Source: an uncultured Bacteroidales bacterium
GTDB taxonomy: Bacteria; Bacteroidota; Bacteroidia; Bacteroidales; UBA12077
Length of the DNA stretch: 53,114 bases
Direction of reading: 5' to 3'
Assembly: GCA_964504155.1 (NCBI GenBank)
Contig: CAZDCZ010000005.1
Span: forward strand, 1-53,114
Below the pieces are notes generated by a model. It was not told the DNA's origin. It saw only the letters and a list, made by a program, of their open reading frames with translations, and made no database searches. This document shows, piece by piece, positions 1-10,288 of the stretch; the first letter of the stretch is position 1, and each line of letters opens with the position of its first letter. The position numbers were made by a program, and so were the translations under genes.

Positions 1-118
1 AATTATATCATAAAATGCTTTTATTTTTACTTATAATCGAGTAAGTTTATATTTTGGGATATATATGCATTAGTTAGGCAAAATTAGGGTGCGAAATATA
101 AAATAAAAGGATACGAAA

Positions 119-1174
119 ATGAAAATAATTAGAAACACAATGCCTATTTCGGATTTTTATCAGAAGATGAAGTCCGGAGACTTAGTTATTAATAGAAGCT
201 ATCAACGTTCAAAAGGACTATGGCCAAATAATGCAAGAACATATTTCATTGATACAATTTTAAATGATTTTCCATTTCCAAAGGTTGTATTGAGAGATAT
301 TATGGATTTAAAGACAAGAAAAACAAAAAGAGAAATCATCGATGGGCAACAACGTTTAACTACAATTAGAGATTTTATTGATAACAAATATATGTTATCA
401 AGAGTAAGTAAAAAATTTAACGGAATGTATTTTGATGATTTAGATGAAATTAATCAATCTTCATTCTTATCTTATGAAGTGTCTGTGGATATTGTTATTT
501 CTGCATCAGAAGAAGAGATTTTAGAAATTTTCAGACGGATTAATTCATATACTTTACCGTTAAATACAGCGGAAAAAAGACACGCTACATATCAAGGAGA
601 GTTTAAATGGTTTATTAATGATTTAACTGACCTGATGACACCATTTTTTGAAAAATTTAAAGTTCTTACTTTAAGAGATATTTCAAGAATGATGGATGCT
701 GATTTGATAACGGAATGTTCACAAATAATAATAGAAGGGATACATAACCGTTCTTCCTCTAAATTAGAAGTTCTTTACAGAACGTATGATAAAGATTTTG
801 AAATTAAAGAAGAATTAAAAGAAAAACTTACAGAAAGTTATAATTTTATAAAAAACAATTTATCAGAGTTGTTTGAAACATTCTCAATTCCTTCTTATCA
901 ATTTTATACGTTTATTGGAGCATTAATTTTTAATAAATACGGAATACCTGATGAGAAAAATGATTTAAGTGATTATTCAACTATTAATTCATTCTCGAAC
1001 CTTAATGAGCGTGTTTTTCGAGAATTAAACATCCTTTTCAATGAATTAGATGAAAAGGATGAAAAGGGTAAATATATAGACTTTGTTAAAGCTTCTATTT
1101 CAACAACTCAAAGTTATAAGAATAGATTAACCCGAATAAAAACACTTATTTCAATTTTACAAAACAATGATTGA
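119..1174 (+). CDS. DUF262 (GmrS/ParB-like) domain protein, 351 aa, no obvious C-terminal HNH/DUF1524 domain
   Basis: DUF262 hallmarks: 'RSYQRSKGLW', 'FIDTILNDFPFP', 'EIIDGQQRLTTI', 'EIFRRINS...LNTAEKR'. Confidence 0.85.
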   Translation: MKIIRNTMPISDFYQKMKSGDLVINRSYQRSKGLWPNNARTYFIDTILNDFPFPKVVLRDIMDLKTRKTKREIIDGQQRLTTIRDFIDNKYMLSRVSKKFNGMYFDDLDEINQSSFLSYEVSVDIVISASEEEILEIFRRINSYTLPLNTAEKRHATYQGEFKWFINDLTDLMTPFFEKFKVLTLRDISRMMDADLITECSQIIIEGIHNRSSSKLEVLYRTYDKDFEIKEELKEKLTESYNFIKNNLSELFETFSIPSYQFYTFIGALIFNKYGIPDEKNDLSDYSTINSFSNLNERVFRELNILFNELDEKDEKGKYIDFVKASISTTQSYKNRLTRIKTLISILQNND

Positions 1175-1802
1175 TTTAAGACACAAAAAACAAAGAATAG
1201 TTCAGTCATTAGATAATTATCGACCTTTATACCAATCAACTTGGTCACCTGAAAGAAATAAATTATCATATACGGCTGGTGTATTGAATTCAATATGGAA
1301 TATTTGGAATAATTTTTGGCGGGAATATTGGATATCACATACAATAGGTGGTTTATATGTAAATGGTAGTCCCATTATTCCTATCCAAGCAAATTATTCA
1401 AAAGGGCAAGCTATATTCTTTTTGTTAATTAAAATTGGAAAACTGAAGCAGAGTAGATTAGGAGATAGTATAACAGGTACTCATCAAGAACCAACCTGGG
1501 GAGATATAATTATTATTGAGAAATTAGCGATTGAATTATTACAGTTTCATCCACATTTGCAACAATTACTAAATTTGATTGGTTATTACAGATTACAAGT
1601 TAAGCATTTCCAACAAATAAGAAATAGTTTCATTCATTTAAATAATGAAAATATTTCAAAATTGAACAATATTCAGAGTAGATATGTATTTAACTCATCA
1701 CAAAAACTTATTAATATATTAGAAGCAAATAAATTGGGAAGTAATGAAACTTGCTTTGAAGATTTAGTAGATAATATGAAAGGACTTGTTTTAAATATGT
1801 AA
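1167..1802 (+). CDS. Putative HEPN-domain protein (RxxxxH motif), 211 aa
   Basis: Start overlaps the DUF262 stop by 8 nt (ATGATTGA). Predicted helical, with 'QQIRNSFIH' (R-X4-H, nt 1620-1637) near the C-terminus. Confidence 0.6.
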   Translation: MIDLRHKKQRIVQSLDNYRPLYQSTWSPERNKLSYTAGVLNSIWNIWNNFWREYWISHTIGGLYVNGSPIIPIQANYSKGQAIFFLLIKIGKLKQSRLGDSITGTHQEPTWGDIIIIEKLAIELLQFHPHLQQLLNLIGYYRLQVKHFQQIRNSFIHLNNENISKLNNIQSRYVFNSSQKLINILEANKLGSNETCFEDLVDNMKGLVLNM

Positions 1803-1809
1803 TAACTGT

Positions 1810-1940
1810 GCCCAACAAAAAATATAGTGCATGCCGCAATTAGTTGTAAATATAAAAGTTATAGAACAAAATAAAGATTGTCGTAACCTGAAAAATAACT
1901 GTTTCAAACTGCGGCACGCACCATATTCAAACCGTTATTT
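1810..1940 (+). other. attC-like recombination site (imperfect inverted repeat)
   Basis: GCCCAAC (RYYYAAC) at 1810-1816, 8 nt after the ORF stop. Arms ATATAGTGCATGCCGCA (1822-1838) and TGCGGCACGCACCATAT (1910-1926) are 15/17 complementary. GTT core at 1934-1936. Total 131 bp. Confidence 0.6.
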
Positions 1941-1956
1941 ATAAAAATATACAATT

Positions 1957-2682
1957 ATGTTAAAAAGGTCTGATATATTTAAAGTTATTTTTATACTAGT
2001 TATTGTGTTTTCTTATACTAGTGTTACGGCTCAAAAAGATAAATTTGTGAGTCTTAGAAAACGAATGGTACGCGAACAAATTGTTGCTAGAGGAATTAAG
2101 TCTCCAAAATTAATTAAAGCAATGAATAAAGTTCCAAGGCATATGTTTATTCCCGATAATTATAAGTTAATGGCGTATGAAGATAGTCCATTACCAATTG
2201 GCAGAGGACAAACAATATCTCAGCCTTATATTGTTGCTCTTATGACCGATAAGCTTAAATTAAATAAGGATATGAAAGTTCTTGAGATAGGGACAGGTTC
2301 AGGATATCAGGCAGCTATTTTAGCAGAAATATGTAAAAGTGTTTATTCTATCGAGATAATAGAAGAATTAGCTAATAGAGCTAAGAACATTTTAGATACT
2401 TTAAATTATACTAATATTCATATTAAAATAGGTGATGGTTATAAAGGCTGGAAAAAATACGCTCCATACGATGCAATAATTGTTACATGTGCCCCTAATA
2501 ATATTCCAAATGCTTTAAAAAACCAATTATCCGAAGGAGGAAAAATGATTATTCCGGTGGGAGGAAGCATAGCTCAGGAATTAATTCTTTTAGAGAAGAA
2601 AAATGGAAAATTATTAAAGAAATTTGTGGCTCCTGTACGTTTTGTGCCTATGGTAAAAAATAACGGCAGAATCATTGATTAG
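1957..2682 (+). CDS. pcm: Protein-L-isoaspartate(D-aspartate) O-methyltransferase with N-terminal signal-peptide-like extension
   Basis: 'AYEDSPLPIGRGQTISQPYIVA', SAM motif 'VLEIGTGSGYQAAILA', 'APYDAIIVT', 'VRFVPM'. Confidence 0.93.
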   Translation: MLKRSDIFKVIFILVIVFSYTSVTAQKDKFVSLRKRMVREQIVARGIKSPKLIKAMNKVPRHMFIPDNYKLMAYEDSPLPIGRGQTISQPYIVALMTDKLKLNKDMKVLEIGTGSGYQAAILAEICKSVYSIEIIEELANRAKNILDTLNYTNIHIKIGDGYKGWKKYAPYDAIIVTCAPNNIPNALKNQLSEGGKMIIPVGGSIAQELILLEKKNGKLLKKFVAPVRFVPMVKNNGRIID

Positions 2683-7401: not shown

Positions 7402-7516
7402 GATAATAATGTTAGTGAATATTAATATAAATATAATACAATTTTTTGAATAATTAACTTGTTTAAAAATTCTTAAACTTATTATATTAACTGTCTTAGA
7501 ATCGAATATTTGAACC

Positions 7517-9127: not shown

Positions 9128-10288
9128 TTATTCCAATTTTTTAATAATCTCATTATACTTGTCTATCATTTGTAAACGATAATATAAAGTTTTTAATGTA
9201 CTCATAATACTAACATCTTCAGGATGAAGTTCGTAAGCTTTTTCAATATAAGGTAATGATTCTTCAAATCTCTTATCTGCTATTTTTTTTGCTGCGTTAT
9301 ATTTTTTAGCATTTTTTATTTCATTTGCTTTATCGGTTAATGCAACAGCTTCGTTAAAAACCAATACTCCAAGATTATAATGAGCTTCAAAAAGATTATT
9401 GTCTAGTTCAAGGGCTTTTTTATAATACTCTTTCGCTTTTTCTGTTTTACCTAATTTATCGTATAAATGTGCTTCAGCAGAATAATATTGAGCATTAGTT
9501 GGGTCTTTTTCTTTGGCTACTTCTAAATATTTAAATGCTTCATCAACATTATCCGATTCTAATAAATAATAGTTAATTAAAGTAACTAACATATCATTAT
9601 TTCCGGGATATTTTTCGAATCCTTCTTGTAGAGTTTTAATTCCTTGTAAAGTGTCTCCGTTTAACATATAGCATTCTTTTAAAAGAATGAATGTATTGGC
9701 TTCTCCGTAGTTATATTTTTTTGCTTCATTATAATATTTAATAGCATTAGCATAATCCCCACATTTTTGTGCCGATAATGCAGCGTTAAATATCATGGCT
9801 GTATCAATTTCGCCATTATATAAAGGCATTTTTTTAACTTCTAAAGTTTTTTCAAAATATTTATAAGATTTAGCATAGTCTTTTGCATTATATGCATCAA
9901 TTCCAACCTGAGTAATATCATTAGCCATAGTAAATAATTGAGCATTAATGAAATTTTTAATAGTATTTCCTTCATCCATATCAAATGCTATTTTAAAATT
10001 ATCAAAAGCATCGATTAATGGTTGGTCGCTTAATTTCTTAAAATTTTCGTCTTCTGTTTTACTTATTGCTTTATATACCATACCTTTTCCATAGTATGTT
10101 TTAGCCCATAATTTTGTTTCAGGTAATTCTGTAGCTTTATTTACCGATTTAAGAGCTGTGTCAAGTTTAATGCCTTCTTCCGACCAACGAATAGCATTTG
10201 TAACTAAAACTTTGTCGCTACAACTACTAAAAAAAATAGTTATTATAGCTAATGACAGTAAAAAATTGATTTTTGCGAATCGTTTCAT
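9128..10288 (-). CDS. Tetratricopeptide repeat protein
   Basis: Multiple TPR units (e.g. 'AKEYYKKALELDNNLFEAHYNLGVL'); signal/lipoprotein-like N-terminus; downstream of gyrA. Confidence 0.85.
   Translation of the reverse strand: MKRFAKINFLLSLAIITIFFSSCSDKVLVTNAIRWSEEGIKLDTALKSVNKATELPETKLWAKTYYGKGMVYKAISKTEDENFKKLSDQPLIDAFDNFKIAFDMDEGNTIKNFINAQLFTMANDITQVGIDAYNAKDYAKSYKYFEKTLEVKKMPLYNGEIDTAMIFNAALSAQKCGDYANAIKYYNEAKKYNYGEANTFILLKECYMLNGDTLQGIKTLQEGFEKYPGNNDMLVTLINYYLLESDNVDEAFKYLEVAKEKDPTNAQYYSAEAHLYDKLGKTEKAKEYYKKALELDNNLFEAHYNLGVLVFNEAVALTDKANEIKNAKKYNAAKKIADKRFEESLPYIEKAYELHPEDVSIMSTLKTLYYRLQMIDKYNEIIKKLE

Follow-up and report, generated by a model that had tools for sequence, protein, structure and literature searches.

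Background

To our knowledge, a single enzyme family, IntI, with its special domain, has been linked to integron-type recombination of folded single strands. The closest described system to the one analysed here is rAID-1 (recombinase-associated acquired interbacterial defence) of gut Bacteroidales, in which a XerD-family recombinase heads an array of co-oriented short orphan-immunity genes with intergenic repeats that have been called 'reminiscent of integrons'; arrays of up to 31 genes have been reported, and the mechanism of their biogenesis was still called an open question in a 2025 paper. As regards integrons themselves, the Bacteroidota have been counted among the clades previously found without them (10.1101/2024.07.02.601686), are listed among the phyla that have them in a review (PMC8618304), and contributed a single complete integron within Bacteroidetes, that of Salinibacter ruber, to IntegronFinder 2.0 (10.1101/2022.02.28.482270). 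The locus described here lies on a stretch of 53,114 nucleotides (contig CAZDCZ010000005.1, assembly GCA_964504155.1; hereafter the window) from an uncultured Bacteroidales bacterium, in which a hairpin-forming site at positions 1810-1940 follows a pair of genes, the first of them encoding a DUF262 protein. In all likelihood, this site is the recombination site of a mobile cassette spanning positions 74-1934, and belongs to a family of sites in the Bacteroidota that work like the attC sites of integrons.

The site and its repeat family

The site follows the stop codon (TAA, 1800-1802) of the second gene, which encodes a protein of 211 aa, and extends over 131 nt:

1810 to 1816, + strand: R''-type core GCCCAAC, of which AAC is invariant in the family alignment; the covariance-model match begins here
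1821 to 1841, - strand (top-strand coordinates): first stem arm, in which A1826 and A1831 become the T of bottom-strand G-T wobbles
1842 to 1906, - strand: variable loop, the counterpart of the variable terminal structure of attC sites, unconserved in alignment A1
1907 to 1927, - strand: second stem arm, in which C1917 and C1922 become the G of the bottom-strand wobbles
1928 to 1940, + strand: spacer CAAACC and composite R' core GTTATTT, with the crossover placed at G1934|T1935

A run of A residues (1817-1820/21) forms the spacer 3' of GCCCAAC, and the GTT occupies 1934-1936. The arms of the inverted repeat are 21 nt long, 86% complementary and 65 nt apart, with a 17-bp core at 1823-1839/1909-1925. 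Of three mismatches, the inner two (A1826/C1922 and A1831/C1917) read as A-C on the top strand but as G-T on the bottom one, and the other (A1839/C1909) falls outside the conserved stem. An initial annotation, made from the letters of the window alone, had drawn attention both to this attC-like succession of core, spacer, imperfect stem and GTT behind a 'DUF262-HEPN pair' and to the strand dependence of the inner mismatches, and both can be read directly in the sequence.

Folding predictions favour the bottom strand. As RNA, the minus strand reaches -42.3 kcal/mol (z -5.2), a value equalled by none of 200 shuffles, and the plus strand -26.0 (z -2.1); as DNA, the corresponding values are -19.1 kcal/mol (z -3.8) and -15.5 (z -2.0). 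Bulged, extrahelical bases are absent, the stem being continuous in the alignment and in the covariance-model match described below.

The site is also far from unique. In several metagenomes, positions 1813-1937 are covered 5-100x deeper than their flanks, and more than 100 metagenome contigs match this segment at 90-99% identity within diverse flanks, some of them keeping the arms but carrying another loop. A BLAST search against plasmids returned a 76% match on plasmid pPP2 of Persicobacter psychrovividus, in a region consisting of a one-directional run of small, mostly hypothetical genes. With an nhmmer profile grown from these copies, 127 repeats can be found in 103 kb of this plasmid. All share the strand of the genes, with a single repeat for each gene or gene pair, at a spacing of 495-2528 bp:

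NZ_AP025294.1, about 302,500 to 403,500 (L025, L027 and L028): Persicobacter cassette array, about 103 kb with 127 sites

This profile, of Persicobacter and L023 copies, matches window positions 1810-1936 over its full length (E 1.1e-16). A covariance model (R1) was built from 25 Persicobacter repeats only, with less than 85% mutual identity, read on the bottom strand and comprising 20 pairs. It matches the window at 1810-1943 on the minus strand with 104.5 bits, over its full length and with no non-standard pair (E 2.2e-22, a rough value, as are all R1 E-values, owing to a shortened calibration); this is the best R1 match among all the loci searched, its bit score lying far above those of the other matches. 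The window hairpin is thus no chance structure, but one of a family of repeats by which cassettes are delimited in very large Bacteroidota arrays. Of the checks that the initial annotation had proposed, the covariance-model search, run with this family-specific model, thereby gave a full-length hit; further copies of the hairpin were found in the pPP2 array and in other Bacteroidota, but no second one was detected in the window, either by an arm search or by R1, or by R1 in the 10 kb upstream.

Stem structure and cassette logic

When 27 sites are aligned, the invariant positions comprise a 5'-terminal AACA, a 3'-terminal CGTT and, within the arms, two TA steps and a single A; in alignment A1, the invariant columns of the R''-type core region are A5, A6, C7 and A8. 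Compensatory changes are observed in 13 of the 16 pairs of the shared 16-bp stem, giving a covariation score of 0.74 compared with 0.14 in shuffles (none of 500 reaches 0.74) and with 0.06-0.11 when the partner columns are slid by 1-3 positions. Two stem positions, 5 nt apart, are non-standard on the top strand in 23 and 26 of the 27 sites, and at the same two positions the bottom strand has G-U in 21 and 24 sites; overall, 95.4% of the cells are paired on the bottom strand, against 84.7% on the top strand. As the A-C mismatches of the window fall at exactly these two positions, the strand asymmetry is a conserved trait of the family rather than a peculiarity of this locus.

The arrays also reveal what constitutes a cassette. 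In 96 of 122 Persicobacter cassettes, the 4 nt that precede AAC match in full (4/4) the reverse complement of the 4 nt with which the same cassette starts behind the previous GTT, compared with 7 of 123 in a control that set each repeat against its own downstream bases; in Ancylomarina, the complementarity extends over 9/9 nt in three successive cassettes. In Persicobacter, the copies of a duplicated cassette agree in sequence from the (CC)GTT of the upstream repeat across the gene and up to the GTT that belongs to their own repeat. This stretch, running from GTT to GTT, implies a unit of the form TTnnnn - gene - nnnnAAC - stem-loop - CCG. Just as with integron cassettes, the unit is thus a circle that has been opened at G|TT, and because cassettes are cut at this point each begins with a TTnnnn that pairs with its own nnnnAAC.

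These regularities bear on three other readings, in which the hairpin is a repeat akin to miniature inverted-repeat transposable elements (MITEs) or repetitive extragenic palindromic (REP) sequences, a transcription terminator, or a minus-strand small RNA gene. The high copy number in several metagenomes, the position just after a stop codon and the stabilisation of a minus-strand RNA by G-U pairs would speak for such readings. However, there is exactly one copy per gene, all in the same direction over 103 kb, the repeat travels with its upstream gene, and the variable nucleotides of the core show complementarity to the start of their own cassette instead of forming direct target duplications. 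No T-run directly follows the stem, and nothing in Rfam reaches its gathering score anywhere in the window, a permissive scan of 1600-2200 giving only chance scores to miRNA- and CRISPR-like models; an antisense RNA would, in addition, require a promoter at each of the 127 cassettes. On these grounds, the MITE, terminator and antisense RNA readings were rejected, and together they appear most improbable.

A number of other properties of the pPP2 array were noted. Several of its cassettes are present in two or three copies. Of its repeats, 55 of 127 (53 distinct sequences) form a subclass of about 182 nt, an example being L025 47054-46873, in which the loop holds a nested perfect hairpin (CCCAAGTTTTGAATCG...CAGATTCAAAACTTGGG); three of the four Ancylomarina sites are also of the long kind. 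The cargo includes members of the SUFU, DUF4272, DUF4279, DUF6678 and TPR families, most of the proteins having no family match, and matches to anti-phage models are rare, arising from one or two of the 72 proteins scanned. The array directly adjoins a contractile-injection-system locus rich in leucine-rich-repeat genes.

Boundaries of the window cassette

At the window locus, the same logic delimits the following elements:

74 to 1934, + strand: mobile cassette of 1861 bp (two genes and the attC-like site), defined by the alignment with a second genome (L030) and by alternative inserts that replace exactly this segment
50 to 73, + strand: left junction GGGATATATATGCATTAG, an attI/attG-like half-site upstream of the crossover; a fourth variant is identical to the window up to base 75
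73 to 79, + strand: left core GTTAGGC, the cassette's own partner core, which pairs with R''; the cassette itself starts at T74

In the second genome (L030/L031), a copy of the DUF262 gene with 85% identity follows a peptidase gene. Its DNA aligns with window positions 60-1963 at 80.8% identity, approximately from the left GTT to the right GTT, includes a full repeat (59.5 bits), and is unrelated to the window outside this interval. The initial annotation had named boundaries unrelated to the GTT among the outcomes that would speak against a cassette; this copy, which retains the site, has GTT boundaries. The gene upstream of the L030 cassette was considered as a possible recombinase and rejected, as it encodes a C-terminal-processing peptidase. 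Elsewhere, a 75% copy of the DUF262 gene is accompanied by a diverged repeat (L032; 34 bits), and an 87% copy lies inside an integrase/primase element and keeps only an R''-like stub (L029). Upstream of the DUF262 gene in the latter, at L029 5783-6000, there is a degenerate 3' end of a repeat (CCACTTCTCATACAATTTACCTTT), and the arrangement suggests that a piece of an array was captured there by another mobile element.

The left junction resembles those found before first cassettes elsewhere, namely ...GATATAAACAAG|TT in Persicobacter and ...ATATAAACAAG|TT in L030 (pattern ATATA...A.AG|TT). The left core is the reverse complement of GCCCAAC at 6 of 7 positions, or at 11 of 14 when the comparison is extended to 73-86 against 1803-1816.

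A strain-variable insertion site upstream of pcm

The cassette lies between an adenylate-kinase-like gene on its left and pcm, which encodes protein-L-isoaspartate O-methyltransferase, on its right. Contigs encoding an identical pcm protein carry different inserts between these same two genes: the DUF262 pair in the window, a split AAA_13 gene with an AAA_21/RloB pair in L007, and a third type in L009, a metagenome-assembled genome (MAG) from NCBI. These three types share sequence only from CCGTTATTTATAAAAATATACAATTATG onward, corresponding to window position 1932. The crossover was placed at G1934|T1935 on the basis that variants have sequence in common only from CCGTTATTT onward, and that duplicate Persicobacter cassettes are bounded by the same core. 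In all variants the right joint reads CCG|TTATTT, and the boundaries of five inserts fall at CCG|TT; at the same junction, a sister species, whose GyrA is 93% identical, has a further insert end, ...CCCGAAAACCG|TTATTTATAAAAATA. A fourth variant, from runs X4 and X5, matches the window exactly as far as ...GCATTAGTT (base 75) and diverges right after GTT75. The inserts of L007, L009, L037 and this variant replace exactly window segment 74-1934.

Variants coexist in single samples, as in X3, in which the window insert has a depth of 9.97 and the L007 insert one of 12.6, compared with 22.4 for the shared flank; the contigs of many assemblies break precisely at this locus. Runs containing the locus are mostly labelled as hydrothermal-vent or marine-sediment metagenomes; of the eight in which it is nearly complete, three have no label. 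A query of genome and metagenome contigs with pcm gave only relatives of about 50% identity, which are uninformative on the locus.

Two points of the initial annotation concern this junction. The deviation of the R' core, GTTATTT, from the GTTRRRY consensus stands, and is explained by the core being composite, since a crossover at G|TT joins the G of the cassette to the TTATTT of the target; the cassette's own partner core is the GTTAGGC at 73-79. The next open reading frame (ORF), which had been likened to a promoterless cassette, is instead the housekeeping gene pcm, unchanged in all variants.

The array-linked recombinase

A gene for a tyrosine recombinase of 379 aa lies immediately upstream of the Persicobacter array and is co-oriented with it. 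As this gene runs across the origin of the circular record, the gene table of the plasmid omits it:

L025 49092 to 49592 and L026 3 to 686, same strand as the array genes: array-linked recombinase gene, spanning the record origin

The protein has Phage_int_SAM_4 and Phage_integrase domains; about 100 additional aa precede the SAM-like domain as an N-terminal extension. It passes the NCBIfam model NF040815, 'XerA/integron integrase' (226 bits, cut-off 220), but fails the integron-integrase model TIGR02249 (198 bits, cut-off 265). Its best solved relative is archaeal XerA, to which it aligns contiguously. With VchIntIA, it aligns in two blocks only, having 26 residues where IntI4 has 68, from which it follows that the IntI-specific insertion is absent (about 42 residues fewer). 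The family is large, comprising more than 7500 proteins at E < 1e-40, of which those named by taxon come from marine Bacteroidota.

The association between this type of recombinase and the repeats recurs. In an Ancylomarina locus (L033), four co-oriented sites (58-96 bits) come after the recombinase, and L036 has a recombinase of the same type with three co-oriented sites. The complete systems, namely those of Persicobacter, Ancylomarina and a TARA/ENA contig, thus comprise as many as 127 cassettes arranged head to tail behind the recombinase. L035 and L036 encode an identical recombinase, and their sequences split immediately after ...CCACTTGTTA, which looks like an attI-type junction cut at GTT. 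In Paracrocinitomix (L034), a recombinase is followed by small co-oriented genes among which no repeat was detected by the profile or by R1; sites there, if any, are too diverged for either.

Comparison with known systems

Classical integrons, with their IntI-dependent attC sites and gene cassettes, are the first term of comparison (PMC8618304, PMC4889954). The likenesses are these: inverse AAC...GTT cores whose variable parts pair in the circular cassette; a crossover at G|TT that leaves a composite core; an imperfect stem with a variable loop, a length of about 130 nt (attC sites have about 57-141) and a bias towards bottom-strand folding; genes, mostly promoterless, each with one site downstream; and co-oriented arrays of great length. 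The differences concern the enzyme and the details of the site. Here the cassettes are co-oriented with a XerA/XerD-like recombinase that has no IntI-specific insertion; two conserved G-T wobbles 5 nt apart, in place of bulged extrahelical bases, provide the strand asymmetry; the spacers have 4 and 6 nt; and the conserved ...CCGTT and AACA exceed the canonical 7-mers.

It might therefore be asked whether the window site is a classical attC site recombined by IntI, and the locus a remnant of a true integron, either an attC-site cluster without an integron integrase (CALIN) or one such site alone (SALIN). Both the shared layout, at 131 nt within the attC range, and the chaining of cassettes with bottom-strand bias fit this possibility, and the NCBI family name of the linked recombinase is 'site-specific tyrosine recombinase/integron integrase'. 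Yet that recombinase falls short of the TIGR02249 cut-off, has no IntI insertion and has XerA as its nearest solved relative, its gene runs with the cassettes, and the stem has no bulged bases; this alternative consequently seems very unlikely. A Xer-like recombinase without the IntI insertion implies that the system is not a classical integron or a CALIN. It is an integron in how it works, while failing two classical features, the IntI insertion and the extrahelical bases. The proposal in the initial annotation of an integron-type cassette in a Bacteroidota accordingly holds as regards family membership and GTT boundaries on both sides, but not as regards an IntI integrase, the linked enzyme being Xer-like.

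The resemblance to rAID-1, with the recombinases compared by family description (XerD-like) only, includes the phylum and the presence of immunity-type families (SUFU, DUF4272, DUF4279, TPR) among the Persicobacter cargo. A recombinase heads the co-oriented array in Persicobacter, Ancylomarina and L036, as in rAID-1, and the rAID-1 trait of two or more co-oriented short genes with conserved motifs between them is matched by the 127, 4 and 3 sites of these arrays. At the window, by contrast, there is a lone cassette in a marine vent bacterium, with one site and no recombinase, for which reasons the locus is not a rAID system; its cargo, a DUF262/GmrSD_N protein and a protein with an Rx4H motif, looks anti-phage rather than being orphan immunity. 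Arrays of the present family also reach 127 cassettes.

SALINs (10.1101/2022.09.11.507474) resemble the window locus in being single chromosomal cassettes far from an integrase, at a short GWT-type target (here TAG|TTA). The window has one site in 53 kb, none in the 10 kb upstream and no recombinase, as expected of a SALIN, a class whose definition presumes an IntI-type attC site. However, SALINs are driven by IntI and scattered over many sites, whereas here one position is reused by several cassettes, both within the population and in a sister species; in this respect, the window locus would be more like an attI site without its integrase. Sedentary chromosomal integrons (10.1101/2024.07.02.601686) likewise carry compact defence systems as cassettes, theirs being served by a Vibrio-type IntI. 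No paper was found that ties Persicobacter to integrons or that describes the stem, wobbles or crossover of these repeats, within a literature coverage that was incomplete and leaves a prior description possible.

Taken more broadly, these comparisons raise the possibility, for and against which the chances seem about even, of a second kind of integron in the Bacteroidota, with a Xer-like recombinase lacking the IntI domain and acting on folded bottom-strand sites, two G-T wobbles in place of bulges and arrays of more than 100 cassettes, which would also place anti-phage modules at reusable chromosomal sites far from the recombinase, so generating strain-level defence polymorphism, and of which rAID-1 would be one branch. 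For the recombinase-associated arrays of the phylum, the family provides a testable site model in which the cores, the stem, the crossover point and both wobble positions are specified. Phage-defence-like modules are among the cargo that such cassettes can bring, and in wild populations the cassettes can settle at a chromosomal site that is used repeatedly; one class of defence hotspot, in which no mobile-element genes are visible, could be explained by this mechanism.

Proposed recombination at the window locus

The events at the window locus can be envisaged as follows. The cassette would exist, or have existed, as a circle, with the site folding on its bottom strand; a Xer-like recombinase of the array-linked type, acting in trans at this locus, would cut the circle at G|TT, and the circle would be joined to a double-stranded target, ...TAG|TTATTT..., upstream of pcm. 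Use of the same pcm-side target by other cassettes would then produce the observed strain polymorphism, and a promoter in the left flank would read both the cassette and pcm.

Several observations weigh against this reconstruction. As the initial annotation had remarked, no integrase is encoded in the window, and with phmmer and a profile of 120 recombinases, applied to all ORFs of at least 80 aa, no tyrosine recombinase was detected in the window and the 10 kb upstream (63 kb in all); all fetched flanks were covered by the same search. An enzyme encoded outside this region would thus be required for activity at the locus, and it is by adjacency that recombinase and sites are linked. The complementarity between R'' and the start of the window cassette is imperfect, as given above. 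Upstream of the left GTT, about 7 of 23 nt in L007 depart from the window sequence, which would not be expected under a simple attI-type model; the insert end of L009 has no recognisable repeat, and those of L007 and L037 match the model weakly (17.3 bits). Pairing of G with T on the bottom strand would also fit a structure in an antisense RNA. Finally, neither the empty site (...GCATTAG|TTATTTATAAAA..., in longer form ...ATATGCATTAG|TTATTTATAAAAATA...) nor the circle joint (...CAAACCG|TTAGGCAAAA..., in longer form ...ATATTCAAACCG|TTAGGCAAAATTAGG...) was found in the assembled contigs of 16 runs, a null that is not evidence of absence because contigs drop rare forms.

Some of these points would be accounted for if the locus were an inactive relic, in which the cassette once came from an array and the present differences between strains arise by homologous recombination through the flanks, as at other defence-island hotspots. 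The lack of a recombinase within 63 kb, the additional differences to the left of the GTT in L007 and the degenerate or unrecognisable insert ends of L007 and L009 are consistent with this, and the flanks, being identical between variants, would be ideal for homologous recombination. Nevertheless, at least four unrelated inserts and that of the sister species all end at the same CCG|TT, one variant switches exactly after the left GTT, and the window copy is an intact and top-scoring site. The shared ends imply that each insert arrived by cutting at the core at least once, and a relic is considered unlikely; a cassette delivered by recombination at G|TT remains the preferred reading.

Genes of the cassette and its flanks

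The genes carried by, and adjacent to, the cassette are as follows:

119 to 1174, + strand: DUF262/GmrSD_N (ParB-like nuclease) gene, a candidate defence protein with a DGQQR motif (Pfam PF03235, E 1.2e-20; PADLOC NsnA, E 3.7e-33)
1167 to 1802, + strand: gene for the 211-aa partner, overlapping the DUF262 gene by 8 nt, HEPN-like by its Rx4H motif (IRNSFIH) only
1935 to 2682, + strand: target-derived sequence and pcm (Pfam PCMT, E 5e-69), the conserved right flank outside the cassette

Homologues of the DUF262 protein number in the hundreds across many phyla, and the gene for the 211-aa protein adjoins that for DUF262 in every homologous locus looked at. The 211-aa protein has no match in Pfam, PADLOC or NCBIfam; of the 'HEPN' label given to it in the initial annotation, the Rx4H motif is therefore what stands, with no family match behind it. 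NCBIfam names neither cassette protein. The pair is a putative anti-phage system.

Just 5' of window base 1, at L001 9838-9875, a perfect terminator-like hairpin (GACCTATATT...AATATAGGTC, followed by a T-run) ends the adenylate-kinase-like gene, which implies that transcription of the cassette and pcm must start within about 130 nt before the left GTT. The pcm ORF occupies 1957-2682, its ATG lying 23 nt after the G of GTT. The distance from the core to the start of pcm is 20 nt in all variants, for which reason transcription of pcm probably begins in the left flank and passes through the insert; in such a read-through transcript, the hairpin would be weakened by its A-C mismatches.

Several minor features of the locus were also recorded. 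The window contains no tRNA gene and has a G+C content of only 22-34% throughout; the GyrA that it encodes is 90% and 77% identical to proteins labelled 'MAG: Bacteroidales/Bacteroidota bacterium'. In L007 (5238-7431), the AAA_13 ATPase gene is divided into two ORFs (118 aa and 402 aa) with about 630 nt between them, and is thus probably disrupted. A 5' half-repeat follows it at 7442-7488, with the matching 3' half 2.4 kb away (9893-9980) after the AAA_21/RloB pair, which looks as if the pair sits inside an old site. Integron cores are known to be targeted by IS1111-attC elements and group IIC-attC introns. In some contigs of runs X5, X8 and X12, CAGACTGTCTAAAAACCC follows ...AACCGT, behind window position 1934/1935; it approximates the reverse complement of the L009 insert end, GGGGTTTTTAGACGGACTG|CCGTT (L009 100-146), and could represent one end of a further element directed at the GTT core.

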